Shown here one piece after another: positions 1-18,718 of a stretch of DNA of 18,718 bases. The stretch comes from a virus. Each line of letters begins with the position of its first letter. The first letter of the stretch is position 1. The stretch is taken from UHGV virus genome UHGV-0133874. One strand, given 5' to 3'. The notes beneath the pieces were generated by a model. The model worked only from the letters and a program-made list of their open reading frames with translations. It ran no database searches and was not told the origin of the DNA. Made by a program: the position numbers and the translations under genes.

Positions 1-117
1 GGAACCGCCCGCGCGCTTGATGCGTTTATTGAGGGGATGACGCTGCATTTTGTCACCGACCGTAAGCCGCTATCGCGCGAGGAGATTTTGAGGATGGTTG
101 AGAGGGTTGCAGGGTAG
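1..117 (+). CDS. 3' end (last 38 codons, ...[12 protein letters not shown]) of a flanking gene, probably host; product not recognised
   Basis: Open frame runs in from the window edge to TAG at 115-117; lies outside the att repeat next to int. Confidence 0.4.
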
Positions 118-120
118 TAG

Positions 121-147
121 ATAAATTTTAGATAACAAAAAACCCAT
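121..147. repeat. Int-proximal copy of the 27-bp att core direct repeat (ATAAATTTTAGATAACAAAAAACCCAT)
   Basis: 25/27 identity with 18565-18591; located just past the integrase 3' end, as expected for a tyrosine-integrase prophage junction. Confidence 0.5.
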
Positions 148-162
148 TTATGTAAATGGGTT
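135..162 (-). terminator. Rho-independent terminator downstream of int (minus-strand sense)
   Basis: Perfect 10-bp stem AACCCATTTA / TAAATGGGTT (141-150 and 153-162) with 2-nt loop, followed on the minus strand by a T-run (plus-strand A-run 135-140). Confidence 0.45.
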
Positions 163-221
163 AGTGAAAACAACGACTTGCAAGATAATCAATAAGTTAG
201 GTTGGTGGTCAGTGGTGGTTA

Positions 222-1274
222 TTACGGGGTAATGCCAACCGCTGCCGCCACTTTGTCGCCACTTGGCAGCGTTGCCAGAGGATTGAAACGGAGCGCCGTT
301 TCCAGATGATCCGGTGCCAGATGTGCGTAACGCATAGTCATTTTTATATCGTGGTGTCCGAGAATTTTTTGTAAGGCCAGAATGTTTCCACCCGACATCA
401 TGAAGTGCGCCGCAAACGTATGGCGCAGAACGTGTGTGAGTTGACCGCGAGGGAGCACGATAGACGTTTTTTCCATCACGGATAAAAATTGAAAATAGCA
501 GTCTGTGAAGAAATTGAACCCATCAAGCGCCATGATCTCTTCGTAAAGCTCTTTACTGATAGGGATGCTTCTGTTTTTCTTCCCCTTCGTTCTTACAAAG
601 GTAATTCGGTATTTGGTCACCTGTGAACGAGTAAGATTTACGGCTTCTCGCCAGCGTGCGCCTGTGCTTAAGCATATCTTAACTACCAGTGCCAGAATTG
701 GGTCCTGACGTTTGCAATCAGCCAGTAATTCAACAATCTGCTCATGGGTAAGCCATGCCATCTCTTTTTCTGCGATGGTGAATTTTCGCATGTTCTCCAG
801 TGGGTTCGGATACGACCATTCGCCCAGGCGGGATAGTTCGCTAAAAACACTACTTAGATAGCTTTGCTCCAGGTTAATGGTGACCGGGCTTGCTCCTTTC
901 TTCCATTTCTCGCTGAAGTAGATCTCACCTGTCAGGCGTTTATCTCGATAGTGGGCAAACATTTTAGAGGTTAGATCAGTTGCAAGGGGATTGCCCAGAG
1001 CGTCAACCATCAGCAGCAATTTGTCATAGACATGCTGCCCAGCAGTCAGTGATTTACCATGTAGTTTGAACCATAGCTCAACCACGTCTTTCAGTGTTCG
1101 ACGATCCACTGATTCACCTAGCCAGGGCTTTGCTTCGGTTTCTTCCATCGTGTGACGCTCAAAAGCCAGTGCTTCGCCTTTGGTGGCGAATTGTTTACGC
1201 ACACGACGCCCACTACGTCCGGCGGGGTAACATTCGCAAAGCCATTTTCCTGTGGTGAGTTTTCGTACAGCCAT
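222..1274 (-). CDS. int: Tyrosine-type site-specific integrase (P2/186 Int family)
   Basis: 351-aa product from ATG at 1272-1274 (MAVRKLTTGKWLCECYP...); C-terminal HxxR...Y catalytic region (HVLRHTFAAHF...MRYAHL). The longer ORF-track start at 1352 is probably an upstream extension. Confidence 0.9.
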   Translation of the reverse strand: MAVRKLTTGKWLCECYPAGRSGRRVRKQFATKGEALAFERHTMEETEAKPWLGESVDRRTLKDVVELWFKLHGKSLTAGQHVYDKLLLMVDALGNPLATDLTSKMFAHYRDKRLTGEIYFSEKWKKGASPVTINLEQSYLSSVFSELSRLGEWSYPNPLENMRKFTIAEKEMAWLTHEQIVELLADCKRQDPILALVVKICLSTGARWREAVNLTRSQVTKYRITFVRTKGKKNRSIPISKELYEEIMALDGFNFFTDCYFQFLSVMEKTSIVLPRGQLTHVLRHTFAAHFMMSGGNILALQKILGHHDIKMTMRYAHLAPDHLETALRFNPLATLPSGDKVAAAVGITP

Positions 1275-1462
1275 AAAAAATGCCCTCCAATAGAGAGCAT
1301 TTTTACTGTATGTATAACCAGTGTCAATGTATGAAATCCTGCGACCATACATCTCACTGAAGCCATAATGAAGTAGGCTATTCTTTTTGCTATGTGATCA
1401 TGTAACTTTTGCGGTTAACCTGTGGCTCATTTTTATTTTAGGCGCAGATATAAAAGCAAAAG

Positions 1463-1654
1463 TTATCGTGAGTTTTTAGTACAGATTTTTTTGGATTTAC
1501 TAATAGTTCCATCATTGCAAACGAATTTGCCATCAGAGGTACAGTGAGAAACACCTCCCTTTTTCCCTGAGCAGGGATAATTTCTAGCATAGGTAGCTAG
1601 TGGGTTTAATAACAAAGAACATGACAAAACCACAAAAAATACCTTACCAAGCAT
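1463..1654 (-). CDS. Small (63 aa) predicted secreted peptide with N-terminal signal peptide and 4 Cys in the mature part; unknown function
   Basis: Hydrophobic N-terminus [23 protein letters not shown] with A-x-A-like cleavage site; GGAG 7 nt upstream of the ATG; AT-rich relative to neighbours; sits between cI and int on the same strand. Confidence 0.5.
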
Positions 1655-1669
1655 AATTTTCTCCCGGTA

Positions 1670-2239
1670 CTATTTAACATACTTGACTGTTAAACTTATA
1701 ATTTTACCAATTATTTCAATGTCTTCTATCTTACATTCAAAGGCTCTGTTTCCACCCTCGACGAAGATTCTTCCACCGGGTAAACGAGTAATGTCACGGA
1801 TCGTTATTTCGCCATCAATACTTATTACCCATTTACCATCACGTATATCATCAAATTCCTTATCACAAATAAATTCAGAATTATTATCTGTGATTACAAA
1901 AAGATTCTTGAATGCCGACGGTAGAAATTCTCTATCGAAAATATAAAAACCGTCTTCACACAAGGCCCCATCAGATAATACATATTTAGCAACTTCCATA
2001 GTATTTGTATTACCTGAAGTTTGCTTTGAACCATGCCCGGTTGTGAGCCAATTAAGCGAGGTGCCTGTTTCAAGGGCGCACTGGATTACCCATTCTGCTG
2101 GGAATGAGTCACGCATGTAGCGTGTGGCGAGTGTACTTTTAGAGATTCCTAAATGATCGCACAACGCCTGTCGAGTCTTGAATCCATAAGCTTCTACCAT
2201 GCGCTCTATGGCGCCTCGTCCGCCTTTCTCCAAATTCAT
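1670..2239 (-). CDS. cI: 186-type CI immunity repressor (N-terminal HTH, C-terminal oligomerisation domain)
   Basis: 189-aa product from ATG at 2237-2239 with GGAG 5 nt upstream; size and position (divergent from apl/cII, upstream of int) match the 186 CI repressor. Confidence 0.85.
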   Translation of the reverse strand: MNLEKGGRGAIERMVEAYGFKTRQALCDHLGISKSTLATRYMRDSFPAEWVIQCALETGTSLNWLTTGHGSKQTSGNTNTMEVAKYVLSDGALCEDGFYIFDREFLPSAFKNLFVITDNNSEFICDKEFDDIRDGKWVISIDGEITIRDITRLPGGRIFVEGGNRAFECKIEDIEIIGKIISLTVKYVK

Positions 2240-2263
2240 GGTCACTCCAAGTGAACTTTTATC

Positions 2264-2292
2264 TTGACGATTTCACCGCGCGATCGTATGTT
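2264..2292 (+). promoter_or_regulatory. Candidate lytic promoter pR (-35 TTGACG, 17-bp spacer, -10 TATGTT) in the cI/apl switch region
   Basis: Sigma70-like hexamers read directly from the sequence, oriented towards apl/cII. Confidence 0.35.
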
Positions 2293-2364
2293 TATGGTGT
2301 TCACAAAATACAAACGATCCGTATTCGTCCTGATTAATCATCATTAAACGAGGAATGTTGCATC

Positions 2365-2586
2365 ATGAGACCTAACATTTCAATCACTCTTACCACGCCT
2401 CATGTGACTATTGAACGCTATAGCGAGCTGACAGGGCTATCCATCGATACCATCAATGACATGTTGGCTGATGGACGCCTTATCCGTCACCGTCTGCGCA
2501 AAGATAAAAAACGCGAAAAAGTGATGATCAACATAGCAGCAATGACCGTTGATGCGCTTTCAGAATGCAATCTAAACCTTAATTAG
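2365..2586 (+). CDS. Small HTH protein at the apl/cox position (putative excisionase and repressor of the lysogenic promoter)
   Basis: 73-aa ORF, first gene rightward of the switch region; assignment is mainly positional. Confidence 0.6.
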
Positions 2587-2618
2587 TTCGATTCTGAAAT
2601 ACATCAGAGGCATTGACC

Positions 2619-3128
2619 ATGTTTGATTACCAAGTTTCCAAACATCCACATTTTGATGAAGCCTGTCGTGCATTTGCACTGCGCCACAATCTGGTGCAAC
2701 TGGCAGAACGTGCAGGCATGAATGTGCAGATTCTGCGGAACAAGCTGAACCCAGCTCAGCCTCATTTATTAACCGCACCAGAAATCTGGCTGCTTACCGA
2801 TCTGACTGAAGATTCAACGCTGGTAGATGGTTTTCTGGCACAGATTCATTGTCTGCCATGTGTACCGATTAATGAGGTGGCAAAAGAGAAACTGCCACAT
2901 TACGTCATGAGTGCAACCGCAGAGATCGGGCGTGTTGCTGCAGGTGCGGTGTCTGGCGATGTAAAAACCTGTGCCGGTCGTCGTGATGCTATCAGCAGCA
3001 TTAACTCTGTAACACGACTGATGGCGCTGGCGGCTGTTTCATTGCAGGCCCGTTTACAGGCTAATCCTGCGATGGCGAGTGCAGTTGATACCGTGACTGG
3101 CCTCGGTGCTTCATTTGGTTTGCTGTGA
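2619..3128 (+). CDS. cII: 186-type CII lysogeny-establishment activator
   Basis: 169-aa product from ATG at 2619 (GAGG 8 nt upstream), the same length as 186 CII; positioned after apl. Confidence 0.8.
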
Positions 3129-3135
3129 GGTGCTT

Positions 3136-3336
3136 ATGCTGACGAAAGAACCATCATTTGCATCGCTGCTGGTTAAACAAAGCCCGGCAATGCATTACGG
3201 TCACGGCTGGATCATGGGGGAGGATGGTAAACGCTGGCATCCGTGCCGTTCACAAGATGAATTGCTGGCAGAACTATCTACGAAAAAACGGGGGAACAAA
3301 TGGCTATTGAAGGCACTGCGGCGACTGTTCCATTAA
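3136..3336 (+). CDS. Small early-region protein, unknown function (position of 186 fil/dhr-type genes)
   Basis: 66-aa ORF from ATG at 3136 with GAGG 5 nt upstream, immediately after the cII stop. Confidence 0.5.
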   Translation: MLTKEPSFASLLVKQSPAMHYGHGWIMGEDGKRWHPCRSQDELLAELSTKKRGNKWLLKALRRLFH

Positions 3337-3641
3337 GCCCCGGTGAACGCCTGAATGGACTTAATCACATTGCGGAGTTAAGGGCGAAAGTTTTTGGCCT
3401 GAATATTGAGTCAGAGCTTGAGCGGTTTATTAAAGATATGCGTGATTCACGGGATATTAATAGCGAACAAAATAAACGGGCACTGGCTGCCATATTCTTT
3501 ATGGCAAAAATTCCAGCTGAACGTCATAGCATCAGCATTAATGAGCTGACCACTGACGAAAAGCGGGAGTTGATTAAAGCAATGAATCATTTTCGTGCAG
3601 TGGTGAGCTTATTTCCCAGACGGCTAACCATGCCGAATTAA
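3300..3641 (+). CDS. Early-region hypothetical protein
   Basis: 113-aa ORF, GGGGA upstream of ATG at 3300; overlaps the preceding ORF by 37 nt, so the true start may be further downstream. Confidence 0.5.
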   Translation: MAIEGTAATVPLSPGERLNGLNHIAELRAKVFGLNIESELERFIKDMRDSRDINSEQNKRALAAIFFMAKIPAERHSISINELTTDEKRELIKAMNHFRAVVSLFPRRLTMPN

Positions 3642-3708
3642 CCAACTAATGAAATTAATGGCGTAAACCCGCCGGGCATCCCTTTATCTAAATTCAGGAG
3701 AATTGATT

Positions 3709-3942
3709 ATGCGTAATATTGAAACCCTCTCGACCAAAACCGGACCGGATGACGCAGGGCTTAATATTTTACTGACAGAGGCTCGTCTGGAAGAACGCCG
3801 GGCAAGGGCTGAAGCAATGGCAGCTCGCCTTGATAGCCTGGCGTGTCATATCACATCCCGCCAGCTAACCCACGTCGAAGCGGCAGAACTGCTTCGTGTG
3901 ACTGCTGAAGCAATCCAGAACGAAGCGCAGGAGATCCACTAA
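3709..3942 (+). CDS. Early-region hypothetical protein (77 aa)
   Basis: ATG at 3709 with AGGAG 8 nt upstream; stop overlaps the next start (TAATG). Confidence 0.55.
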   Translation: MRNIETLSTKTGPDDAGLNILLTEARLEERRARAEAMAARLDSLACHITSRQLTHVEAAELLRVTAEAIQNEAQEIH

Positions 3943-4169
3943 TGGCTGATGCAATGGATCTCGTACAGCAGCGCGTTGAAGAAGAACGCCAACGCCATAT
4001 CCGTGCTGCCCGTGCCAAAACGCCGGGCGTGTCCCGCGTGCTTTGCATTGAGTGTGAAGCGCCAATTCCGCCAGCACGCCGCCGTGCCATTCCGGGTGTG
4101 CAGCTTTGCATTACCTGTCAGGAAATCGCAGAGCTGAAAGGCAAACATTACAACGGAGGTGCTGTATGA
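3942..4169 (+). CDS. TraR/DksA-family C4 zinc-finger protein (phage TraR-like)
   Basis: 75 aa with CxxC-N17-CxxC (CIECEAP...CITCQE); AGGAG upstream. Confidence 0.8.
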   Translation: MADAMDLVQQRVEEERQRHIRAARAKTPGVSRVLCIECEAPIPPARRRAIPGVQLCITCQEIAELKGKHYNGGAV

Positions 4170-5023
4170 GCACCATCCTGAAATGGGCGGGAAATAAAAC
4201 CGCCATTATGTCCGAACTGAAAAAACATCTTCCTGCTGGCCCGCGACTGGTTGAACCTTTCGCGGGTTCCTGTGCTGTGATGATGGAGACGGATTACCCC
4301 AGCTATCTTGTTGCGGATATTAATCCTGATTTAATCAACCTCTATAAAAAGGTTGCTGCTGATTGCAAGGCGTTTATATCTCGTGCCAGAGCTTTATTTG
4401 AGGAAGCAAACAGGGATGTGGCTTATTACAACATAAGGCAGGAGTTTAATTACTCCACTGAAATTACTGATTTCATGAAAGCGGTATATTTCCTGTATCT
4501 CAATCGTCATGGTTACCGTGGGTTATGTCGCTATAACAAGAGCGGGCATTTCAACATTCCGTACGGTAATTATAAAAATCCGTATTTCCCTGAAAAAGAA
4601 ATTCGCGCATTTGCAGAGAAAGCCCAGCGGGCAACGTTTATCTGCGCCAGCTTTGATGAAACGCTGGCGATGCTGCAGGTGGGGGATGTGGTGTATTGCG
4701 ATCCGCCGTATGACGGTACGTTTTCCGGCTATCACACTGATGGTTTCACTGAAGATGACCAGTATCACCTGGCATCCGTTCTTGAACATCGATCATCAGA
4801 AGGATATCCGGTCATTGTTTCTAACAGTGACACATCCCTGATCCGTTCGCTGTATCGCAATTTTACTCACCACTACATCAAGGCAAAACGCAGCATCGGT
4901 GTGGCAGCTGGTGAGAGTAAATCTGCAACAGAAATCATCGCTGTTTCCGGGCCGCGCTGCTGGGTGGGATTTGATCCTTCGCGTGGCGTGGATAGTTCAG
5001 CCGTGTACGGAGTACGTGCATGA
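4166..5023 (+). CDS. dam: DNA adenine methyltransferase, Dam family (probably GATC-specific, N6-adenine)
   Basis: 285-aa product aligns along its length with E. coli Dam as recalled: [15 protein letters not shown] (AdoMet motif), [19 protein letters not shown] catalytic motif; GGAGG 6 nt upstream of ATG 4166. Confidence 0.9.
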
Positions 5024-7434
5024 GTCATGCCGATATGAACAACTGCTGCGGCTTTAACGAGGCTGCCGCAGCGTTCTCATGGAACAGCCCGAAAAAGGCC
5101 ATTAACCCTTATCTGGACCCGGCGGAAGTTGCGCCGGTTTCTGCGCTTTCAAACCTGATCACTCTGTACGCTGCCGATAACGAGCAGGAACAACTGCGCC
5201 GCGAGGCACTGAGTGATCAGGTCTGGGAGCGTTATTTTTTTAATGAATCACGTGATCCTGTCCAGCGCGAAATGGAGCAGGATAAGCTCATTAGCCGGGC
5301 AAAGCTGGCGCATGAGCAGCAGCGTTTTAATCCGGATATGGTCATTCTGGCGGACGTCAACGCCCAGCCTTCCCATATCAGCAAGCCGCTGATGCAACGT
5401 ATTGAATACTTCAGCAGCCTGTGCAGGCCAAAGGCTTATTCCCGCTATTTACGTGAGACAATTAAGCCATGTCTGGAACGACTGGAGCATGTACGCGACA
5501 GCCAGCTATCTGCATCTTTTCGTTTTATGGCAAGCCATGAAGGGCTGGACGGCCTGCTTATCCTGCCTGAAATGAGTCAGGATCAGGTGAAGCGCCTGTC
5601 TACCCTTGTCGCTGCGCATATGAGCATGTGCCTTGATGCCGCTTGTGGTGATTTGTATGCCACCGATGACGTTAAGCCAGAAGAAATCCGCAAAACATGG
5701 GAAAAGGTGGCAGCGGAAACCCTGCGTCTGGATGTTATTCCGCCTGCGTTTGAGCAACTCCGTCGGAAAAGAAACCGCCGTAAACCCGTGCCCTATGAAC
5801 TCATTCCGGGTTCGCTGGCGCGTATGTTGTGTGCCGACTGGTGGTATCGGAAATTATGGAAGATGCGTTGCGAATGGCGGGAAGAGCAGTTGCGTGCTGT
5901 CTGCTTGGTCAGCAAAAAAGCATCTCCCTATGTCAGCTATGAAGCCGTGATGCATAAACGTGAGCAGCGCCGTAAGTCGCTGGAGTTTTTCCGTTCTCAT
6001 GAACTGGTGAACGAAGACGGCGACACGCTGGACATGGAGGATGTGGTAAACGCCAGCAGCAGCAACCCGGCGCATCGCCGCAACGAGATGATGGCCTGTG
6101 TTAAAGGCTTGGAGCTTATCGCGGAAATGCGTGGTGACTGCGCCGTTTTCTACACCATCACCTGTCCGTCACGTTTCCATTCCACGCTAAATAACGGCAG
6201 GCCAAACCCGACCTGGACCAACGCGACAGTAAGACAAAGCAGCGATTATCTGGTCGGCATGTTTGCTGCATTTCGTAAGGCTATGCACAAAGCCGGGTTG
6301 CGCTGGTATGGCGTGCGGGTGGCTGAGCCGCATCATGACGGCACAGTTCACTGGCACCTGTTGTGTTTCATGCGCAAAAAAGACCGCCGCGCCATTACTG
6401 CATTGTTGCGTAAGTTTGCCATCCGTGAAGACCGCGAGGAGCTGGGCAATAACACGGGGCCACGCTTTAAGTCTGAGCTGATAAACCCGCGCAAAGGAAC
6501 GCCGACAAGCTACATTGCGAAATATATCAGTAAGAATATTGACGGGCGTGGTCTGGCTGGCGAGATCAGTAAGGAAACGGGTAAATCCCTGCGTGATAAC
6601 GCTGAATACGTTAATGCCTGGGCGTCTCTGCATCGTGTTCAGCAATTCCGCTTCTTTGGCATTCCGGGGCGTCAGGCTTACCGTGAACTGCGATTGCTGG
6701 CTGGTCAGGCGGCAAGGCAACAGGGTGACAAAAAAGCAGGTGCGCCGGTACTGGATAACCCGCGCCTTGATGCCATCCTGGCTGCTGCTGATGCTGGTTG
6801 TTTTGCCACTTACATCATGAAGCAGGGCGGCGTACTGGTTCCCCGCAAATATCACCTCATCAGAACCGCTTATGAAATAAACGAAGAGCCAACCGCCTAT
6901 GGCGATCACGGTATTCGTATTTATGGCATCTGGTCACCCATTGCAGAGGGCAAGATCTGCACTCATGCAGTGAAGTGGAAAATGGTTCGTAAGGCCGTTG
7001 ACGTTCAGGAGGCGGCAGCCGACCAGGGCGCTTGCGCCCCTTGGACTCGTGGCAATAACTGTCCCCTTGCTGAAAATTTGTACCAACAAGGGAAAGACAA
7101 ATCAGCTGATGGGGATACCAGAACGGATATCACCCGTATGGATGACAAGGAGTTGCACGATTACCTGCACAGTATGAACAAAAAAGAACGCCGGGAACTG
7201 GCTGCAAGGTTACGCCTGGTGAAACCGAAACGGCGTAGAGACTACAAACAGCGAATTACAGACCATCAACGACAGCAGCTCGTCTATGAACTGAAGTCCA
7301 GAGGATTTGATGGCAGCGAGAAAGAGGTCGATTTACTCCTTCGCGGCGGCAGTATTCCGTCAGGAGCAGGCCTGCGTATCTTCTATCGGAACCAGCGTTT
7401 GCAGGAAGATGATAAGTGGCGGGATCTGTATTAA
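5020..7434 (+). CDS. A: P2 gpA-type rolling-circle replication initiator (nicking endonuclease)
   Basis: 804 aa; HxH-type metal-binding motif ([10 protein letters not shown]) and tyrosine-containing active-site segment ([11 protein letters not shown]); start overlaps the dam stop (ATGA). Confidence 0.9.
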
Positions 7435-7503
7435 TTACGCGGGTTAACAATTCGTGCTCTTAATAATACCAGGCATATCAGGCTGATGAACGTAAAAAAA
7501 CGT

Positions 7504-7546
7504 TTTACATCAGTAAGATTATTATATACTGTAAATATAAACAGTG
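7504..7546 (+). promoter_or_regulatory. SOS-regulated promoter with LexA operator (CTGTAAATATAAACAG, 7529-7544)
   Basis: Near-consensus LexA box CTGT-N8-ACAG with AT-rich centre and TA/TG flanks, overlapping a -10-like TATACT (7525-7530), with -35-like TTTACA at 7504-7509. Confidence 0.7.
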
Positions 7547-7587
7547 GTTATGTGTACAGTATTGCTTGTGGTGTCATAGGAGGAAAA

Positions 7588-7776
7588 ATGCAGGACTATT
7601 TTTTGGAGTCTTTGAAGCTCCAGCGCATTGATTTTTTTCTTAAGCTTGTAGCGGCTAGTGAGTGTAGTGATGAAGAGAAGGGGCTGGCTCTGCAGTGGGT
7701 TTCTGAATTGACTGATGAACTCATGGCAAAAATCAGAAGCCACGAATACAACCGCTCAATGGATGTCATCAGCTGA
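7588..7776 (+). CDS. 62-aa ORF, first gene after the LexA box; possibly the N-terminal part of a disrupted tum-like antirepressor gene
   Basis: ATG at 7588 with AGGAGG 4 nt upstream; frame ends 10 nt before the DinI-like ORF, which is in the +1 frame. Confidence 0.5.
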   Translation: MQDYFLESLKLQRIDFFLKLVAASECSDEEKGLALQWVSELTDELMAKIRSHEYNRSMDVIS

Positions 7777-7786
7777 GGTGACTTTT

Positions 7787-8020
7787 ATGCGCATTGAAAT
7801 AATGATCGATAAAGAGCAGAAAATTAGCCAGTCTACCCTGGACGCCCTTGAATCCGAGCTTTACCGCAATCTGCGCCCCCTGTATCCCAAAACGGTAATT
7901 CGTATCCGCAAAGGTAGCTCTAACGGTGTGGAACTGACCGGACTGCAACTGGACGAAGAAAGAAAACAAGTGATGAAAATTATGCAGAAGGTGTGGGAAG
8001 ACGACAGCTGGCTGCATTAA
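7787..8020 (+). CDS. DinI-family protein (DinI / 186 Tum C-terminal-domain-like)
   Basis: 77 aa, MRIEIMIDKEQK...LDALESEL...KVWEDDSWLH matches E. coli DinI as recalled (MRIEVTIAK...IDALAGEL...ETWESADDWF); GAGGTG 6 nt upstream of the ATG. Confidence 0.75.
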   Translation: MRIEIMIDKEQKISQSTLDALESELYRNLRPLYPKTVIRIRKGSSNGVELTGLQLDEERKQVMKIMQKVWEDDSWLH

Positions 8021-8525
8021 GAAACGTTGCTGGCGTCTGAACTTGCTTCTGGCGTCAGCAAGGTTGAACAACGAGCTGTGCGAGGCGTTAGCCATCTGAT
8101 CAAAAGACATCAAATATCATATTGTATATCGTGGTCAAACGCTGGAAACTATCATTCCCGGTCAGAGGGGCTTCTTTCAATGTCCAAAAGAGTGAGATAG
8201 AGGATACAGGATGGGAAGAGCTTATGATGATTGTTCTTGGATTGACTTGGAATATTTGATGTCCATTATCTAATGGACTTGGTCTTGATAGTTATCACGA
8301 AAGAGGAAGCCAACGTCATGTATTTGAAGAGTATCTCTTACCTTTTGATTAATTATTGTCCAAGTTTTTCAAAAGCTTCTTATCTGGCGGTCGATACATG
8401 ATTTACTGTTGGATATGGTATTTAAAATTAATCTTTACACTGTGGTATATGCAGAATAGGATATTATCAATACAATCAAACCGTTTTCATACGGTTGTTA
8501 ATATTGCAATGTTATAGGTAATGTC

Positions 8526-9644
8526 ATGTATCTTTTCAAGTATTACCGTCCGGACTTCTTCTTCGAGAAAGCTATTCGTTATAATGAATTATATTTTTCC
8601 GCTCCTGCGCAATTGAATGATCCTAATGATCTCAATATAGATTATCGTTTTGATAATAAATTGAAATTATGGGATATTTTATTGCGTTCTCCTTGCGATA
8701 AATCCTATGAAAATTTGAGTCACATATTAGATTTGAGTAATTTGAAGATACATAAGGGATTGAATCGTATTTTTAGAGGAAAAAAAATAAAAAGTAGCAT
8801 TGAGTCATTAGATAGCCTGTTTGACTCACACGTTGATGAGATACGTAAGATCATAAATGATGGTTTACTACCTATCAATGTGATTAATTCCGCTATTTAT
8901 GGGAATATTCCTGAACCACGCCAATTTTTGGTCTCACTTTGCGAGAACAGTATCAAAGAAAGGTTGTATAGGAAAATAGTTCCTGCAGTATTCAGTGTGT
9001 CATTTTCAGCTAATGCGTTAGATCGTATGATGTGGGCGCATTATGCTGCAGGCTTTAGTGGTTGTGTTGTGATTTATGAAACGCAGGATTTTAATATTAA
9101 TGGCGTGCCACATCCTGGAATGAAGCTAAGAGAAAATTTATTTTCATCAGATAAATTTAATTTTCCAGTTAAGCAAATAAAATATAGTAATCAGGCTAAA
9201 GAGGTTTCACTTCTAGACCCAAGCGCAAATGTTGCAGAGTTATTTTTAACTAAAAATAGATTTTGGAGATATGAAGCTGAATATCGAATGTTTATTCCAG
9301 AGGCAAATGCAGGAATAGGGAGTGAGCGGCATGTTCAAAGACGCGTAAATCGAAATATTGGACATATTTTTCATCATGATGCTAATGTTGTTAAAGGGAT
9401 CATTTTTGGTCCTAGAATGTGTGAAATGAAAAAAGAAAGCATATGGAATTGTATCAAGTCAAATATGGAGAATTCAAATTCAACAATATGTTATTTTTTT
9501 GACTCTGAGTTATCAGCATCAGGAAAGATTACTATTTCAAAAGGGCAACGAGCGGAAAAAATGAAAAATTTCCCTTTGTTCAGGAACAAGTTAAGTCAGA
9601 CGGAAATGGCTAAAGTTTTGAAGGAAATTGGCATTACGAACTAA
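8526..9644 (+). CDS. DUF2971-like protein (372 aa), function unknown; candidate accessory/defence gene
   Basis: N-terminal pattern FKYYRPDFF...NELYFSAPAQLNDPND and central MWAHYAAGFSGCVVIYE resemble what I recall of the DUF2971 signature; gene is markedly AT-rich versus the phage backbone and sits alone between tum and cos. Confidence 0.6.
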   Translation: MYLFKYYRPDFFFEKAIRYNELYFSAPAQLNDPNDLNIDYRFDNKLKLWDILLRSPCDKSYENLSHILDLSNLKIHKGLNRIFRGKKIKSSIESLDSLFDSHVDEIRKIINDGLLPINVINSAIYGNIPEPRQFLVSLCENSIKERLYRKIVPAVFSVSFSANALDRMMWAHYAAGFSGCVVIYETQDFNINGVPHPGMKLRENLFSSDKFNFPVKQIKYSNQAKEVSLLDPSANVAELFLTKNRFWRYEAEYRMFIPEANAGIGSERHVQRRVNRNIGHIFHHDANVVKGIIFGPRMCEMKKESIWNCIKSNMENSNSTICYFFDSELSASGKITISKGQRAEKMKNFPLFRNKLSQTEMAKVLKEIGITN

Positions 9645-9710
9645 CCTAACAACAGTGCATGCCTATGCTGCCTGAATTTGCATGACCGTTTGAGGATCGT
9701 TTTTGCTAAG

Positions 9711-9735
9711 GCCCGCCAGAACTGGCGGGCTTTTG
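9711..9735 (+). terminator. Rho-independent terminator after the DUF2971-like gene
   Basis: GCCCGCCAG-aa-CTGGCGGGC perfect 9-bp GC-rich stem followed by TTTTG. Confidence 0.7.
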
Positions 9736-9779
9736 CGTGGATCAGGCACCTGCATGAAAACCACTACACAAAGCGGGCA

Positions 9780-9798
9780 GGCGTGGCGGGGATACGAG
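9780..9798. other. Candidate cos cohesive-end sequence (GGCGTGGCGGGGATACGAG)
   Basis: First 13 nt match the 186/P2 cohesive-end sequence as I recall it (186 GGCGTGGCGGGGAAAGCAT); lies between the replication/tum arm and the portal gene, where cos sits in 186. Confidence 0.35.
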
Positions 9799-9900
9799 CG
9801 CGCGCTAACTCATAAATCCTAGATTATTAGTGGATTTATCTCATTGAAATGTGCACTATTCCCAGCATTGAGTTGTACCAGATGTCTTTATGGAGGGACT

Positions 9901-11667
9901 GTGGCTTTTGTAACTGATATTCGGCTTGAAGATAATGCTATTGCTGCACCTGCGACAGCACAGGTTATGGCTCAGAGGCTAGGATCTGTATTACGTAAGA
10001 GATATGAAGAATTCATCCATAAAAGAGAGTGTGCACCAGGCCAAGCAGACTATGATGTAAAAATGGCTAGCAGGGCTTTAGCTGCATTCACTATGTATCA
10101 GTTAGGATGTGTGGATGATAAGTATGCAGGGGAGTCTGTATGTGATAGTAGTGAAGATGGTGGTATAGATGGAATAGCAATCAACCATAACGAAAAAATC
10201 GTTGTTGTTGTTCAATCAAAATTTCACCAATCGGGAAACGGCACTTGGACAAGAGCCGATTTTATGTGTTTTAAGGATGCTTGTGAGAAGCTACAAAGTG
10301 AAAGATACGAATTATTTGATTCCATATTGCAAAATAAAAGCGGGGAAATAAGTGCGGCTTTAAGTAGTTTTGAATACAAGTTCATCTTTGCGATGGCGCA
10401 TACAGGTAAAAAAGGTGCTGCAGAGGAAATATTAAATGATATGCGGGAATGGCAATATCAATTAAACGCTGCAGCTTTTACACCTGAGGATGAGCCTAAA
10501 GAGAACTGGGGATTTCAGGTTCATTTAATATCCTCTGAAGATATGATGCATTGGTTACAGAATGGCTCTCGAAATCAAATTGATCTTAACAGGGTTGAAA
10601 TTGAGCGTTTTGGATTTTTGAATGAACCATATCAAGCTTTTTACGGGGCTATTAGTGGTGATCAAGTTGCAGAATGGTGGGAAGAGCATGGTGCTCGATT
10701 ATTTACAAAAAACATAAGGAATATGCTTGGTAAAACAGAAGTGAATGAGGAAATAAAAAAGACAGCTATAGATAATCCTGATATGTTTTGGTTTTATAAT
10801 AATGGGATTACTGTACTGGTTAAGGAAGTTGTTCCTCATAGACGAAACGCAGCTCCTAATATAGAGAGAGGGATTTTTGATTTTCGTGATGTAAGTGTCA
10901 TTAATGGTGCACAAACAGTCAGTAGTATTGGCGCATGTAAAGATGCACTTGGTGAAAACATATATAGACTCAAAGTGCCAGCTAGATTCATTGTTATAGA
11001 TGATGATACTGATAATTTAACTGCAAATGCAATTACAAAAGCTAACAATTTCCAAAATAGAGTATTGGGAAGAGATTTTGCATCGCAGCAGGCAGATCAA
11101 CATAGATTGGCAAGGGAGTTAGTGCTTGAAGGATATCAATATCAGTTACTAAGAACAGATGAAGATCATTCACAGACAAATACGAAAGTCATTGACTTGG
11201 ATGAGGCGCTCAATGCACTCGCATGTTTAAGTAAAAATAATACGGTTGTATCGACACTAAAATCAAATCGCGGTAGGTTTTTTGAAAATTTTGAAGGCTC
11301 TCTATATAAAACTATTTTCAATCCAAGATTAAGTGGTTTAAAACTTATCAATACTGTTCTACATTTTAGAGTTATAGATAAGTTGATCGGTAAAACATTA
11401 CTATCAGTAGATAAAACGACCCATAGTCGCAAGCATTTAATTATTACGCATGGTAATAGATACTATGCGTCTGTACTATTGAGCAACGTTTCTGGGATAC
11501 ATAATAGCTCAGAAATTCTTGTTCCAGATGAAAAAAATCTTTCCGAAGAATTAAGTGCATTAATTCAACGTGCTGAAGAGTACATTGAAGATAATTACCC
11601 GAATGCCTATCCGGCAAGATTTTTTGCAAATCCAACGAAAATACAAGAGTTATACGATAATGTTTAA
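9901..11667 (+). CDS. Protein with N-terminal Mrr-like PD-(D/E)xK nuclease motif and AIPR-like C-terminal region (abortive-infection-type); candidate anti-phage effector
   Basis: Open frame 9844-11667 (607 aa from TTG 9844; 588 aa from GTG 9901 with GGAGGG 3 nt upstream; ATG at 9967 also in frame). DGGIDGIAI...KIVVVVQSKF resembles the Mrr catalytic D...(Q/E)xK motif; WFYNNGITVL and INGAQT resemble AIPR-family motifs as I recall them; AT-rich. Confidence 0.75.
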   Translation: MAFVTDIRLEDNAIAAPATAQVMAQRLGSVLRKRYEEFIHKRECAPGQADYDVKMASRALAAFTMYQLGCVDDKYAGESVCDSSEDGGIDGIAINHNEKIVVVVQSKFHQSGNGTWTRADFMCFKDACEKLQSERYELFDSILQNKSGEISAALSSFEYKFIFAMAHTGKKGAAEEILNDMREWQYQLNAAAFTPEDEPKENWGFQVHLISSEDMMHWLQNGSRNQIDLNRVEIERFGFLNEPYQAFYGAISGDQVAEWWEEHGARLFTKNIRNMLGKTEVNEEIKKTAIDNPDMFWFYNNGITVLVKEVVPHRRNAAPNIERGIFDFRDVSVINGAQTVSSIGACKDALGENIYRLKVPARFIVIDDDTDNLTANAITKANNFQNRVLGRDFASQQADQHRLARELVLEGYQYQLLRTDEDHSQTNTKVIDLDEALNALACLSKNNTVVSTLKSNRGRFFENFEGSLYKTIFNPRLSGLKLINTVLHFRVIDKLIGKTLLSVDKTTHSRKHLIITHGNRYYASVLLSNVSGIHNSSEILVPDEKNLSEELSALIQRAEEYIEDNYPNAYPARFFANPTKIQELYDNV

Positions 11668-11670
11668 ACT

Positions 11671-11697
11671 AAAGGGAGGTTGCCTCCCTTTTTTTTA
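11671..11697. terminator. Bidirectional rho-independent terminator between the AIPR-like gene (+) and portal gene Q (-)
   Basis: AAAGGGAGG-ttg-CCTCCCTTT hairpin flanked by a T-run on the plus strand and an A/T-rich tract on the minus strand. Confidence 0.7.
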
Positions 11698-11698
11698 A

Positions 11699-12727
11699 TT
11701 AGAAATGGTATTCTTGGAATTCAATAACACCTTCTTCTATGAAATTGTTTATTTCTTGTAATCTTTTTTGCAATGGCAATAATTCATTACGTACAAATAC
11801 TTTACTCGCCTTCTCTACATCTCCAAAGCCCCCAACATTATTAGGCATTATCCCCATCATTTGCGGCGGCACACGGTGTGCCGCCATCATGTCGTCCCGA
11901 CTCACGTTCTTGATATTCAGAAACTCATCCTTCGCCGCGACTTCTGACAACGGGATAATCTGAAGCCCGTCCTTTTTGCCGTTAGGAGAGTACATAAACA
12001 GGTTGCGGAAGTTGCCTGGCCCTTTGGCGCTTTTCATTGCGTTGCGGAGGTTGTTCACATCTTCTTGGTTCTGCGCGGCATCGGTCATGTACATGATGAA
12101 ACCTGCATGGCTGCCGTTGATGTAATACTTACGGCGGAACAGTGTGGCGGACTCGTTGAGCAGGGCTGACGGGATGGCAGAAAGATAACCTGGCAGGCCG
12201 TAGATCTCCTGGTTGATGTCCGGTTCCATCAGATGAAAAATGCTGCCTTTCGTGAACTGATACGGCTGGGCTGTCATACCGTATTGCACAAACCAGTAGG
12301 TATCCAGGTCTAATCCGCGTCGGGTGTATTTTGCCAAAGCTGGCTCAAGGGCGATAACTTCACCAAAGCGGTTCGTGCGTTTCTCCAGGTAGGCGTTACC
12401 AAATACCAGATAGTCCTGCACAAAACGCGAAAAAGCCTGCTGGCTAAGCAGCGGATGAGGGATATAGGTACTGGTCAGAATGTTGCACTTTACTGCAATC
12501 GGGGAACTGTGATGCACGGCGGCGCGGAAGGTGCGCGCCAGTCCATTAAAGCTGACGGGCGGCTCATACCAGCGATCCATCTGTACGCATTCCACATAGT
12601 CCAGCAGTTCGCGGCGGTCCAGCACGGGGATGGGATCACCAAAGCTGAAAGCCTCAGCCGTTGGGCCGTTGCTTGGTTTTGTGTCGTGATCAACTGTTAC
12701 CTGCTTGGTGTTTTTACGTTTGCTCAT
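11699..12727 (-). CDS. Q: Portal protein (P2 gpQ / 186 W family)
   Basis: 342 aa, position immediately downstream of the terminase genes on the minus strand; P2 Q is about the same length. Confidence 0.9.
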   Translation of the reverse strand: MSKRKNTKQVTVDHDTKPSNGPTAEAFSFGDPIPVLDRRELLDYVECVQMDRWYEPPVSFNGLARTFRAAVHHSSPIAVKCNILTSTYIPHPLLSQQAFSRFVQDYLVFGNAYLEKRTNRFGEVIALEPALAKYTRRGLDLDTYWFVQYGMTAQPYQFTKGSIFHLMEPDINQEIYGLPGYLSAIPSALLNESATLFRRKYYINGSHAGFIMYMTDAAQNQEDVNNLRNAMKSAKGPGNFRNLFMYSPNGKKDGLQIIPLSEVAAKDEFLNIKNVSRDDMMAAHRVPPQMMGIMPNNVGGFGDVEKASKVFVRNELLPLQKRLQEINNFIEEGVIEFQEYHF

Positions 12728-13431
12728 TCTGCCAGTTCCTTGCTAGCGAGAGGCCATTCGCACATAAACAGCATTTTCCAGTCCTTTTCTGATAATTCTT
12801 TTTTCATATCGTTCAGCCAGTTATCAGTAAACAACATTGCTCCAGATGCTGCTGCGTCATCTGCGGTGAACACCATGCTGGTTACGCTGTTGTTTCTGCA
12901 TAGCTTTTTATATTCCTGCCGTGCCTCTGGGTTAGGGCTGGGAGTGGTGTAGTAGGTGGCGTGGTAGTGTGCGTGCATAGAAATCCCTTTAGCGATGGCA
13001 ATCATATTTCTCGGTGATTCACTCCAGGCATACTCTGACACGTAAACATTTCCACTGAGTGCGGAGGTGAGACTGCTGAGGTCGGTAAAATAAATTACTG
13101 CACCATTCGGAAGCTCCAGATGACTTTTGCCTGATTTTATTTTTCCAGTGTGCGTATAAGCTGCGGCCTGGCTTAAGAATGCTGATACACAGGCTTTGAT
13201 TGCCTGCGCAGATGCTGTGCTGCAGCAGAGGAAAATCTGGTTACGCCCGGTATGCAGTGCATCGTTCAGGGCTTCATAGGAAAAAAAGAAATCCGCGCCT
13301 GCCTGGCGCATTTTTGTGAGTACACGGTTTCTACTCTTTGGGCCAGTGTTCCACTCATACTGGTAAGCAAAGAAAAAGCTATCCACCGGAAGTCCCGCGA
13401 TAGTCATGAGGTTAGTTGGGATTGGGGGCAT
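12724..13431 (-). CDS. Terminase large-subunit ATPase-domain paralog (235 aa), lacking the N-terminal and nuclease domains, with degenerate Walker motifs
   Basis: Aligns by eye to residues ~140-380 of the adjacent P protein (ALNDALHTGRNQIFL vs ALIDALLTGRNQIFL; ELPNGAVIYF vs VLPNGATLYF; TYYTTPS vs TYFSTPS; MLFMCEW vs NLLMCEF); Walker A RQIGAT is RQAGAD and Walker B LYLDEY is VYVSEY; start/stop overlaps with P (TGATG) and Q (ATGA). Confidence 0.7.
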   Translation of the reverse strand: MPPIPTNLMTIAGLPVDSFFFAYQYEWNTGPKSRNRVLTKMRQAGADFFFSYEALNDALHTGRNQIFLCCSTASAQAIKACVSAFLSQAAAYTHTGKIKSGKSHLELPNGAVIYFTDLSSLTSALSGNVYVSEYAWSESPRNMIAIAKGISMHAHYHATYYTTPSPNPEARQEYKKLCRNNSVTSMVFTADDAAASGAMLFTDNWLNDMKKELSEKDWKMLFMCEWPLASKELAE

Positions 13432-15197
13432 CAAAAAATCTCCACAATATTGCTGGTATTGGCGGATTCGCCCTGCAGCGGTTCGTTAAACAGTGCGTGC
13501 ATCGTTGCCCAGGCCAGATCGGCGTGGCTGGCTTCTTCGCTGCGGCTGGCTTCATAGGTTGGGCGGTTGCCGCTCGCGGTGGTGGCGCGACGGATTGCCA
13601 TGAATGACTGCGCTATGTCGGTGTGTCCGGCGTCAAACTCCAGACGGCGGTGGCTGATAATGTCGTAGGCCTTGAGTACCAGGGCGTTTTTAACATTGGG
13701 GTTATAGACAAACTCCCGGACGGCTGGAAAAAACGCTTTCACGTTCTCGTAAACCCCGTGGCCGACACCTGTCGAGTCGATGCCGATGTAGGTCACGTTG
13801 TACTGCTCGGTCAGTTTTTTGATGGCGTCAGCCTGGGCGCGGAAGTCCATCCCACGCCACTGGTGACGCTCAAGAATGCGGAACTTACCACCAGGCACGG
13901 CTGGCGGTGCCACCACTACGCATCCGGCGCTGTCGCCGTTTTGCGTACCTTTTGCCGGGTCATAACCGATCCACACTTCGCGCCAGCCAAACGGGCGCAG
14001 AGCCAGTGCATGAAAGTCGGTCCAGACTTCCCAGCTGTCCACCATGCACGCCTGCAGCTCGCTGAGCGGGAACACGGACGCGAGATCGTCCACAAACTCG
14101 CACATCAGCAGGTTCTGGTATTCGTCCGGGCTGTACTCCATGCGCAACTGGTCAAGGTCGAACAGGTTACAGCCGCCGCGCACCGCATCTTCCACGGTGA
14201 CTATCTGGCGGTATTGCCCGTCTGCGCACAGCAGGCCGGGGGCCAGATTGCTGTGGGACAGGTCGATGTCCACCTTGTCGGCCTTGTTGCGCCCACGGTT
14301 GAACAGCGCACCGGACCAGAACGGATAAGCACTGTGTGTCAGGCTGGATGGCGTGGAAAAATAGGTTTGTCGCCATTTTTTGTGAATAGCCATACCGGAA
14401 GCCACTTTGCGCAGCTCCTGGAATTTCGGTATCCAGAAATATTCATCCAGATACAGGTTGCCGTGATAACTCTGGGCCGTGCGGGCATTGGTGCCGAGGA
14501 AGTAAAGCGTGGCTCCGTTAGGAAGCACCATCGGATCGCCTTTCAGCTCCACCTCGACTTCTTTGGCGAAGTCTATGATGTACTGCTTAAAGACGTGAGC
14601 CTGTGCCTTACTGGCAGAAAGGAAAATCTGGTTACGTCCGGTAAGCAGGGCGTCAATCAGGGCTTCACGGGCAAAGTAAAAGGTCGCGCCGATCTGGCGT
14701 GACTTCAGCAGGTTGCGGATGCGGTTGGTTTTTCCGGCTTCCCACCAGTGGCGCTGGTAGTTGAACATGGAGGAATGGAAAATTTCTTCCAGCTTCTCAA
14801 TCTGTTCATCGGTGAAAACATTCTTTTCCGGCTGACGGCGCGGGCCTTTGTTGCGGTTGGCGACGTTAGGGTTTAAGTCGGCTTCGTTACCGCCATTGTT
14901 AAACTTGCCGATCCGCGCGTGGCGCTCCGACTGGCGCGCCAGCAGGTCAATTTCTTTGAAATCTTTCCCTTCTTTGTGCTCCTTCATAATGAGCTGGCAG
15001 TAGCGTGCGGCGGTGGTGAGCTGCATCTGATCCAGCGGCCCATAGTCACCCCACTTGTCGCGTTTTTTCCAGCTGTGAACGGTTGCAACTTTCTCGCCCA
15101 GCATTTCAGCAATGCGGGCTACGCGGTATCCCTGAAAGTACAGCAGCATGGCCTGCCGACGGGGATCGAGATCTGCGGGTGTCAGTGTGGTGTTCAT
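13431..15197 (-). CDS. P: Terminase large subunit (P2 gpP family), ATPase plus nuclease domains
   Basis: 588 aa; Walker A-like KSRQIGAT, Walker B LYLDEYFW, C-terminal nuclease-type segment IGIDSTGVGHGVYE; P2 P is ~590 aa. Confidence 0.9.
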   Translation of the reverse strand: MNTTLTPADLDPRRQAMLLYFQGYRVARIAEMLGEKVATVHSWKKRDKWGDYGPLDQMQLTTAARYCQLIMKEHKEGKDFKEIDLLARQSERHARIGKFNNGGNEADLNPNVANRNKGPRRQPEKNVFTDEQIEKLEEIFHSSMFNYQRHWWEAGKTNRIRNLLKSRQIGATFYFAREALIDALLTGRNQIFLSASKAQAHVFKQYIIDFAKEVEVELKGDPMVLPNGATLYFLGTNARTAQSYHGNLYLDEYFWIPKFQELRKVASGMAIHKKWRQTYFSTPSSLTHSAYPFWSGALFNRGRNKADKVDIDLSHSNLAPGLLCADGQYRQIVTVEDAVRGGCNLFDLDQLRMEYSPDEYQNLLMCEFVDDLASVFPLSELQACMVDSWEVWTDFHALALRPFGWREVWIGYDPAKGTQNGDSAGCVVVAPPAVPGGKFRILERHQWRGMDFRAQADAIKKLTEQYNVTYIGIDSTGVGHGVYENVKAFFPAVREFVYNPNVKNALVLKAYDIISHRRLEFDAGHTDIAQSFMAIRRATTASGNRPTYEASRSEEASHADLAWATMHALFNEPLQGESANTSNIVEIF

Positions 15198-15243
15198 GGC
15201 ACAAACCTACAGCCTTGAATGAAGGCTTTCCCCGCCTGCGGTT

Positions 15244-15261
15244 TGTGTGGTTGTCGGTACA
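15244..15261. promoter_or_regulatory. Ogr/Delta-type activator binding dyad (TGT-N12-ACA) in the divergent late promoter region between P and O
   Basis: TGTGTGGTTGTCGGTACA fits the P2-family late-promoter element; centred ~87 nt upstream of the O start codon and ~55 nt from the P start codon. Confidence 0.4.
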
Positions 15262-15339
15262 AATACCGCGCATTGTTTCACTGCCCCCATCACCGCAACC
15301 ATAAGGCTCCAGTAAGTTTTTTCTAACGGAGCACGGCTC

Positions 15340-15679
15340 ATGACAGTGAAAGCAAAGCGTTTTCGCATCGGGGTGGAAGGTGCCACCACCGACGGACGCG
15401 AAATCCAGCGTGAATGGCTGGAACAGATGGCAGCCAGCTACAACCCGGCGGTGTATACCGCGCTGATTAACCTTGAGCACATCAAGTCTTATCTGCCGGA
15501 CAGCACCTTTAACCGCTACGGCAAGGTGACGGCGCTGTTTGCTGAAGAAATCACGGAAGGTCCGCTGGCAGGCAAGATGGCGCTGTATGCCGACGTTGAG
15601 CCAACGGAGTCCCTGGTGGAACTGGTGAAAAAAGGCCAGAAATTATTCACCTCTATGGAAGTCAGCCCGAAGTTCGCTG
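15340..15679 (+). pseudogene. O: Capsid scaffold gene O, N-terminal ~110 codons only (truncated by an internal deletion)
   Basis: MTVKAKRFRIGVEGATTDGREIQ...INLEHIKSYLPDSTFNRYGKV...LFTSMEVSPKFAD matches the P2 gpO N-terminus as recalled; after ~15680 the frame reads through tape-measure sequence out of frame to a stop at 15855. Confidence 0.65.
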
Positions 15680-16612
15680 ATATCTGGTCTGTTAGGTGCT
15701 CTGCTCAGTCCGATAGGTCTTGTGGTTACTGCACTGGCGGGCGTGGCGCTGGTTGTCTGGAAATACTGGCAACCCATCACCGCATTTCTCGGTGGCGTGG
15801 TGGAAGGATTCAAAGCGGCGGCAGGTCCCATCAGTGCAGCGTTCGAACCGCTTAAGCCCGTGTTCCAGTGGATTGGCGACAAAGTGCAGGCGCTGTGGGG
15901 CTGGTTTACTGATCTGCTGACGCCCGTTAAGTCGACCTCTGCCGAACTGCAGAGCGCAGCGGCAATGGGGCGGCGATTCGGGGAGGCACTGGCGGAAGGG
16001 CTGAATATGGTCATGCATCCGCTGGACTCCCTGAAATCCGGCGTTTCCTGGTTGCTGGAGAAGCTCGGCATTGTCAGTAAAGAGGCAGCAAAGGCAAAAC
16101 TGCCGGAAAGCGTGACGCGTCAGCAACCTGCGACGGTGAATGCAGACGGTAAAGTGATGATGCCATCGGGTGGTTTTCCATCATGGGGATATGGCTTTGC
16201 GGGGATGTATGACAGCGGCGGGTATATCCCGCGCGGGCAGTTTGGCATCGTCGGTGAAAACGGGCCGGAAATTGTTAACGGCCCGGCAAATGTGACCAGC
16301 CGGAGAAATACAGCTGCACTGGCTGCCGTTGTTGCCGGAATGATGGGCGTTGCTGCCGCGCCAGCAGAGCTTCCACCGTTGCACCCTTTGGCACTTCCCG
16401 CGAAAGGTGGAGAAGCAATTGTGAGTCGCGCAGCCACTGTGCCGCTCGTTCAACGGATTGAGGCACCGACGCAGATCATCATTCAGACGCAGCCAGGACA
16501 AAGTGCGCAGGATATTGCGCGGGAGGTGGCACGCCAGCTTGATGAACGTGAACGCAGGCTGAAGGCAAAAGCCAGGAGTAACTACAGCGATCAGGGGGGA
16601 TACGACGCATGA
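15680..16612 (+). pseudogene. T: Tail tape-measure gene T, C-terminal ~300 codons only (5' portion deleted)
   Basis: Hydrophobic segment (GLLGALLSPIGLVVTALAGVALVV) and C-terminal GQFGIVGENGPEIVNGPANV typical of tape-measure C-termini; in the +1 frame relative to the O remnant, with an upstream in-frame stop at 15626-15628; followed by U and D as in P2. Confidence 0.65.
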
Positions 16613-18564: not shown

Positions 18565-18591
18565 ATAAATTTCAGGTAACAAAAAACCCAT
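18565..18591. repeat. Ogr-proximal copy of the 27-bp att core direct repeat (ATAAATTTCAGGTAACAAAAAACCCAT)
   Basis: 25/27 identity with 121-147; followed by a CCCATCAACC...GGTTGATGGG hairpin (18587-18623) that reads as a minus-strand terminator of a gene lying to the right. Confidence 0.5.
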
Positions 18592-18718
18592 CAACCTTGA
18601 ACCGAAATGGCGGGGTTGATGGGCTCCACAAAATGGGGACATCAAAGAAAAGCAGTGGCACTAATTAAGACTGATGCCCTGCGGAAAAGTTCTGCGGTTG
18701 TGCAAAAAAATTTCATTT

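Follow-up and report, generated by a model that had tools for sequence, protein, structure and literature searches.

The 18,718-nucleotide stretch of viral DNA catalogued as UHGV virus genome UHGV-0133874 (the window, by which the whole stretch is meant) carries, between the cos site and the portal gene of a P2/186-like Escherichia coli prophage, a + strand gene at 9901-11667 whose 588-aa product belongs, judged by profile and motif comparison, to the AbiU1/AIPR family of anti-phage proteins encoded by single genes, of which it is a typical member. The reading that we favour, and consider reasonably probable, is that this protein acts alone in the manner of an abortive-infection system, that it is swappable cargo of the cos-to-portal interval guarding the lysogen, and that it would be a self-inhibited nuclease governed by a ParB-like switch. 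As a discovery the gene is ordinary, since the public record already contains the gene itself, the family and hotspot to which it belongs, and the prediction that its product is a nuclease. The identical protein is RefSeq WP_021542068.1, named "AIPR family protein", and this exact protein stands in the P2 hotspot table (Table S5) of Rousset et al. (2022). AbiU is itself a named defence system, so that the initial annotation of this DNA, which did not recognise the product as any named system, was wrong on that point. A 2026 paper assigns AbiU-1 to the PD-(D/E)XK superfamily, a 2026 review reports a 146-residue superposition of the AlphaFold model of lactococcal AbiUi on FokI, and AbiU1/AIPR/COG1479 has been put in the ParB superfamily, often fused to other nucleases (Makarova et al., 2013). 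No experimentally demonstrated mechanism or solved structure for the AbiU/AIPR family was found in searches of the literature and of structures.

The family assignment is carried by profile matches that agree with one another. Pfam AIPR (PF10592) scores 121.7 bits against a cut-off of 25 (E 6.7e-35), aligning residues 268-563 with model positions 1-305 of 308; PADLOC AbiU (PDLC02357) matches over nearly its full length (E 6.3e-25; profile positions 45-512 of 537); and the PHROGs family phrog_1841, "Abi alpha-like abortive infection mechanism", matches at E 7e-173. The AIPR likeness first suggested from short motifs is thereby borne out, and the four motifs then quoted are all present (DGGIDG at residues 86-91, VVQSK at 103-107, WFYNNGITVL at 297-306 and INGAQT at 334-339). 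Across 61 relatives of 24-55% identity, the NNG, NGAQT and NxQN motifs and the N-terminal D..D.G.D...QxK motif are invariant or at least 90% conserved, and every one of them occurs in this protein. At E ≤ 1e-3 an exhaustive family search returned 4,026 cluster representatives, most of them ~550-600 aa long; those with the highest scores are of this length and align end to end, the full-length layout being kept in hundreds of representatives, and the protein therefore has the standard architecture of the AIPR family; homologues at 52-87% identity keep the full length from cyanobacteria to Vibrio. Membership of the MZA system was considered and dropped, as the MzaE match (a partial one in PADLOC; 58 bits against a cut-off of 1050 in NCBIfam, residues 248-396) covers only the AIPR core and falls far below the cut-off, and no Mza-like neighbours are present.

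The founder of the family, AbiU1 (AbiUi) of Lactococcus lactis plasmid pND001, is matched by the same family models, is of similar size (~570-590 aa) and likewise acts as a single gene. However, it is carried by a Gram-positive plasmid and the window protein by an enterobacterial P2-like prophage, and the likeness is one of family models; the lactococcal locus also contains AbiU2, a second (HEPN) gene whose presence weakens the effect, whereas the window locus has no such gene. AIPR proteins have been said to contain HEPN (PMC3506569), but an HEPN RNase with an Rx4-6H motif was rejected, as nothing HEPN-like was found here and HEPN belongs to AbiU2. No Lactococcus record was seen among the plasmid matches listed (a spread sample, 30 of 115) or among the phage matches. 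Of the E. coli relatives that have been tested, the nearest is pFR77, from the P4-satellite hotspot of E. coli E1167 (Rousset et al., 2022, Table S2B), which is 33% identical over residues 22-420, has the same architecture, shares the D..D.GID...QSK, NNGIT, NGAQT and NxQN motifs, and is also cos-adjacent cargo of a P2/P4-type element, although it belongs to another subfamily and resides in another element.

The limits of the gene can be given closely. As originally proposed, an open reading frame (ORF) of 607 codons is present at 9844-11667 (+); the AIPR gene proper, the coding sequence of WP_021542068.1, begins within it at GTG 9901 and ends with the stop at 11667. The start had been left ambiguous among TTG 9844, GTG 9901 and ATG 9967, an ambiguity that homologue alignment and the RefSeq entry resolve in favour of GTG and against the other two. 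In 31 full-length homologues (from Enterobacterales, Pseudomonas, Vibrio, Aeromonas, Shewanella and cyanobacteria; ~588-609 aa), every N-terminus reads MAFV or MALV, with M1, D11, N12 and T19 invariant; the RefSeq start for the identical protein is GTG 9901 as well; and a Shine-Dalgarno sequence, GGAGGG, lies at 9892-9897, 3 nt 5' of this codon. GTG 9901 was chosen as the start on account of these homologue N-termini, the RefSeq annotation and the GGAGGG position, while TTG 9844 and ATG 9967 were discarded because residues 1-22 are kept across genera and all homologues begin at the MAFV position. The Shine-Dalgarno sequence is part of a cargo-specific 5' leader at 9807-9900 (+). With a GC content of 0.364 and a third-position GC content (GC3) of 0.25, the gene is AT-rich against the phage backbone, as had been noted, the replication, portal and terminase genes having GC contents of 0.53, 0.50 and 0.57 and GC3 values of 0.57-0.70, and this foreign base composition marks it as cargo. 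The gene also has its own intrinsic terminator, as was claimed for it, at 11671-11700 (+): AAAGGGAGG-TTG-CCTCCCTTT followed by T9, that is, a GC-rich 9-bp stem at 11671-11691 and then nine T, adjoining the portal stop codon on the opposite strand (11699-11701). Repeats inside the gene are short chance ones only, and no Rfam families were found in the region.

In the predicted structure the protein divides into four parts, namely an N-terminal helical segment, an Mrr/FokI-type PD-(D/E)xK nuclease domain, the AIPR core and a C-terminal helical domain. The nuclease domain would comprise residues ~80-225 (10138-10575, +), with putative catalytic residues, named from their conservation, at D82, D86 and D90 (10144-10170) and at Q105-S-K107 (10213-10221). 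In the 61 relatives D82, D86, G88 and D90 are conserved without exception (61/61), Q105 in 58 and K107 in 60. The best fold matches of the model are PD-(D/E)xK nuclease domains, with FokI first (8.7), followed by AspBHI (7.7), AF1548 (7.6), N.BspD6I (7.2) and MspJI (7.0), and with LlaBIII, Avs4, HamA and Can2/Card1 at lower scores; a Foldseek comparison of the full model with the PDB gave nothing below E 0.38. The nuclease matches disappear when residues 226-588 are modelled alone, which places the nuclease fold in residues ~80-225. By sequence profile, Pfam Mrr_cat (PF04471) gave no match to this protein at E ≤ 0.1; it matches two of the 61 relatives weakly (best E 0.0034), as Mrr_cat_2 does two, and a few relatives have weak HamA matches. 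The domain is thus best described as Mrr/FokI-like by predicted fold and by motif and not as a demonstrable Mrr_cat member by profile; of the Mrr-like PD-(D/E)xK nuclease first proposed, the fold and the D..D..QxK motif stand and the Pfam profile match does not. Other Mrr/FokI-type domains (the FokI cleavage domain, AF1548, the N-terminal domains of Avs3 and Avs4, and the LlaBIII nuclease domain) are found with DNA-recognition, helicase or STAND modules, whereas here the domain is fused to an AIPR core.

The AIPR core (residues ~226-425; 10576-11175, +) holds the invariant motifs N271-x-R273, N300-N301-G302, N335-G336-A-Q338-T and N383-x-Q385-N386, together with F393, and its predicted fold is weakly ParB/sulfiredoxin (Srx)-like. 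The matches of this type are to PadC (6.3), ParB-N (5.5), BrxU (5.4), sulfiredoxin (5.3), SspE (4.7) and KorB (4.4), and unrelated helical proteins score similarly. When 26 AIPR cores were scanned against Pfam at E ≤ 10, no match to ParBc, DUF262 or DndB appeared, and profile searches of the PDB, made with the full family and with the AIPR core, returned chance matches only, with no solved ParB-like chain and no related structure detectable by sequence. The ParB-like motif of the window protein, NGAQT, lacks the arginine of the DUF262 DGQQR box, as it lacks that of the ParB GxxR box. A parallel may be drawn with GmrSD, BrxU and SspE, in which a ParB-like NTPase (DUF262) is joined to a His-Me nuclease (DUF1524), so that a ParB/Srx-like module and a DNA nuclease share one polypeptide, and which are defence proteins lacking a methylase; BrxU and SspE are themselves among the fold matches of the modelled window protein. 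However, the predicted nuclease of the window protein is of the PD-(D/E)xK type and N-terminal, and there is no sequence-level relation. The last ~160 residues form a C-terminal all-helical domain (residues ~430-588; 11188-11664, +) predicted with high confidence, in which H517-G-N519-R520 is conserved and for which no informative fold match was found.

The placement of the gene between cos and the portal gene, as first described, is confirmed. With the replication endonuclease (gene A) at 5020-7434, cos at 9780-9798 and the portal gene (gene Q) at 11699-12727 (-), the AIPR gene lies between gene A and gene Q, beside cos, in the gpA-gpQ hotspot of P2-family phages (Rousset et al., 2022), which contains both the AIPR slot and the slot of a neighbouring DUF2971 gene; the idea that the P2-like cos locus is a variable site for anti-phage cargo is thus sound. 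The cos sequence, GGCGTGGCGGGGATACGAG, agrees with that of phage 186 at 15 of 19 positions and differs at four, and the same 19-mer, together with the 8 nt after it, recurs in P2-like phages and elements of E. coli, Klebsiella and Salmonella. It stands in a conserved region (9645-9806, +) made up of a GC-rich hairpin at 9705-9736, the 19-mer itself and then cgcgcgct. Between phages with different cargo, similarity stops at 9806, 8 nt (cgcgcgct) to the right of the 19-mer, while ~70 nt to its left are well conserved; genomes that combine AIPR with other cargo on the gene A side match from ~9654, and genomes that have DUF2971 without AIPR match up to ~9809. On its left side the cargo slot is anchored for recombination by this cos region (9645-9806). 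The right-hand junction probably lies, by comparison of related phages, inside the 3' end of the portal gene, of which the last ~40 codons (11699-11818, -) are AT-rich (GC 0.27-0.32 in 60-nt steps). The C-terminal ~20 residues of the portal protein (…EINNFIEEGVIEFQEYHF), compared across seven phages, vary with the cos-to-portal cargo, and cargo exchange therefore appears to swap the portal tail too. In P2 and 186 only ~170-180 bp separate cosL from the portal stop, so that the AIPR gene fills a slot left vacant by the type phages. The position of the P2 genes old and tin, which the gene had been said to occupy, is a different one. These lysogenic-conversion exclusion genes are likewise AT-rich, non-essential gpA-gpQ cargo of a P2-family phage, but their proteins are unrelated, their transcription runs leftwards, and their place is the interval from gene A to cosR, which lies across cos from the AIPR slot, at the right end of virion DNA. 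In the window that place is held by the DUF2971 gene (8526-9644, +; 372 aa; GC 0.335), which matches phrog_1762 and the PADLOC candidate system PDC-S31 (E 3e-23).

Comparison of the locus among genomes confirms that the gene is variable cargo and no part of a conserved core. While an 8200-11750 query finds at least a partial match in 1,249 of 5,426 complete E. coli genomes, the module 9810-11698 is present in only 12, always at ≥ 99.5% identity and with the ORF intact in all 12; the slot is empty in P2 and 186 and filled by other genes in Klebsiella phage KP12 and strain p10A. In every case cos lies to the left of the module, and the genes on the far side of cos vary from genome to genome: the identical AIPR protein is found across cos from DUF2971 (in the window), from DarT with a macro domain, from an AAA ATPase with HNH, or from a ComF-like pair, and a further pairing, with a KAP NTPase, is given by Rousset et al. 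(Table S5). The DUF2971 gene, for its part, is found elsewhere with the cos-to-portal slot occupied by another protein, of 557 aa. These reciprocal pairings argue that AIPR and DUF2971 are independent modules, and on such comparisons the hotspot consists of two independently assorting slots parted by cos. A two-gene system of DUF2971 and AIPR was accordingly dropped, since cos separates the genes and they assort independently. Two other AIPR subfamilies, of 27% and 23% identity, sit in the same slot and orientation in Klebsiella P2-like prophages and in Salmonella phage RE-2010; judged from these alignments, three AIPR lineages use the cos-to-portal slot, in P2-like phages of E. coli, Klebsiella and Salmonella. 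Among Pectobacterium, Pseudomonas and Vibrio loci no shared neighbour of the homologues was found, those of Pseudomonas standing alone between housekeeping genes and those of Pectobacterium and Vibrio in unrelated integrase islands, and by these neighbourhoods the AIPR gene has no conserved or obligatory partner. Other occupants of the slot are the 557-aa protein of strain p10A (5201-6874), with a weak PADLOC DitB match (E 3e-10), and three genes without a Pfam or PADLOC match in KP12 (13795-15989); both sets are candidates in a defence slot. Matches to the protein also occur on plasmids of ~5.6 kb (records NZ_CP056368.1 and NZ_CP063292.1), one from Citrobacter, with an AIPR gene 37% identical over 96% of the length, and one from Salmonella, with a partial match of 41% identity over 46% of the protein, and AIPR genes therefore also move on very small plasmids.

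These observations allow a model for how the AIPR protein may guard a lysogen of this P2/186-like prophage against other phages. The model proposes that the protein is present in the lysogen in a self-inhibited state, and that its AIPR core, as a divergent ParB/Srx-like module, serves as a sensor or nucleotide-dependent switch, by analogy with the ParB-like DUF262 of GmrSD, BrxU and SspE. Upon infection the core would let FokI-like nuclease domains pair, the DNA would be cut, and phage gene expression and replication would stop, perhaps with loss of the cell. A FokI-type domain cuts both strands of DNA only when paired with another, and nucleotide binding makes ParB-type domains dimerise; hence the AIPR core may be the sensor or switch that licenses cleavage, a role to which, by this analogy, we attach moderate confidence, given the missing arginine of NGAQT and the weak fold scores. 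Anti-phage activity of this particular protein is predicted from its family and its hotspot. Several points weigh against the model as a whole. The glutamine in the place of E/D at the (D/E)xK position, typical of Mrr-type enzymes, is one of them. Nucleotide binding by the modelled AIPR core is not established, NGAQT being without the arginine. A promoter scan of the + strand between cos and the start codon (9807-9900) found no sigma-70-like promoter. Lactococcal AbiU slows phage transcription and lowers plating 10- to 100-fold (2026 review), and this phenotype of delayed transcription and modest effect is no proof of DNA cleavage. Finally, pFR77, the AIPR gene of the P4 hotspot, was challenged with eight phages and is found only under "additional tested systems", not among the validated ones (Rousset et al., 2022). 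A bolder and decidedly tentative extension, which we hold to be possible though doubtful, is that AIPR proteins are a distinct class of single-protein immune nucleases, in which a degenerate ParB/Srx module (NGAQT for GxxR) would act as a nucleotide- or DNA-gated dimerisation switch pairing two FokI-like domains, a fold-swapped and order-reversed analogue of GmrSD/BrxU; in that case P2-family phages would possess a dedicated slot between cos and portal, bounded 8 nt from the cohesive end and within the portal 3' end, that has captured three different AIPR lineages.

Other explanations would account for some of the same observations. The protein could be a direct, non-suicidal type IV restriction enzyme, a PD-(D/E)xK counterpart of GmrSD, BrxU and SspE, whose ParB-like module senses modified or foreign DNA and whose nuclease cuts the invader only. 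That modification-dependent enzymes (AspBHI and MspJI) figure among the top nuclease matches, and that the module contains no methylase or immunity partner, would fit such an enzyme. However, the domain order is reversed relative to GmrSD, BrxU and SspE and the nuclease fold is different, the likeness to DUF262 is weak and without sequence support, the P4-hotspot relative cloned by Rousset et al. is not among the systems validated on their eight-phage panel, and AbiU is described as delaying transcription, with features of the abortive type; we regard this explanation as unlikely, if the most serious of the alternatives. The same result with the P4 relative, tested and not validated, can be read as a sign that the gene gives little or no defence in E. 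coli and is a hitch-hiking or decaying moron retained between two recombination anchors, a reading that also draws on the effect of lactococcal AbiU, which is only 10- to 100-fold, on the rarity of the gene (12 of 5,426 genomes) and on the defective state of the host prophage. Decay, however, sits poorly with an ORF that is intact in all 12 genomes at ≥ 99.5% DNA identity, and intact in two elements missing different structural genes (that of the window and one in strain E423), or with the conservation of all catalytic-type residues and of full length in homologues from cyanobacteria to Vibrio at 52-87% identity. In addition, a 2024 bioRxiv preprint counts AbiU among the Vibrio defence systems countered by the phage anti-defence proteins that it characterises experimentally, with Surt acting against AbiU. 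We consider a moron of little effect distinctly improbable.

Least of all do we expect a role in the service of the phage itself and not in defence, such as ParB-like handling of DNA during packaging, maintenance in the manner of a plasmid or interference with P4-type satellites, to which we give hardly any weight. The foreign base composition is that of cargo, the slot is empty in P2 and 186 and holds unrelated genes in other relatives, and close homologues reside in chromosomal islands and plasmids far from any cos. Such a role would nevertheless explain why AIPR genes of three subfamilies always stand directly beside cos and in the same orientation in P2-like phages, and why an AIPR gene occurs in the cos-adjacent hotspot of P4 satellites too; ParB-fold proteins are also frequent in partition.

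As to the element that carries the gene, the window holds a P2/186-like E. coli prophage, which over positions 1-15682 shares 99.99% identity with a full-length prophage of strain 1008S13. Its gene order runs integrase, CI, CII, Dam-like methylase, replication endonuclease, DinI, DUF2971, cos and AIPR, with portal and terminase on the opposite strand. A 27-nt att repeat, in copies 93% identical at 121-147 and 18565-18591, encloses 18,444 bp, so that the whole prophage lies within the window. At ~15681 the capsid-scaffold gene breaks off internally, and the sequence continues with the 3' part of the tape-measure gene, gpU, gpD and ogr; the element is a defective deletion derivative without capsid, lysis and most tail genes, in which both cargo genes are intact. 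A full-length RybB small RNA gene is present at 18578-18656 (-) (Rfam 105 bits against a gathering score of 40); attR overlaps the rybB 3' end, which therefore serves as the prophage attachment site. Between the portal and terminase genes lies an extra 236-aa ORF (12724-13434, -), in which only a Terminase_6N domain is found (E 8e-16) and of which an 80-nt stretch is 78% identical to the terminase gene (14620-14699); a similar ORF occurs in phage 186, and three of the other AIPR-carrying prophages examined lack it. In strain E423 a second P2-like remnant, degraded differently, has a truncated portal gene with a tail gene fused nearby, and its intact AIPR gene stands beside a DarT/macro (DarTG-like) pair and an IS5 fragment.

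The AbiU/AIPR family is widespread, as the 4,026 cluster representatives at E ≤ 1e-3 attest, and is routinely called by defence-finding tools. To this the present work makes small additions: the start codon is settled, the module limits are mapped, two cos-separated slots are distinguished, and three AIPR lineages are placed in the cos-to-portal slot. The E. coli copy is a convenient one in which to study the family, being a single gene with clear limits in a genetically tractable host, with D90, K107 and N335/Q338 as clear targets for point mutants and with natural isogenic contexts in which the gene is present or absent.

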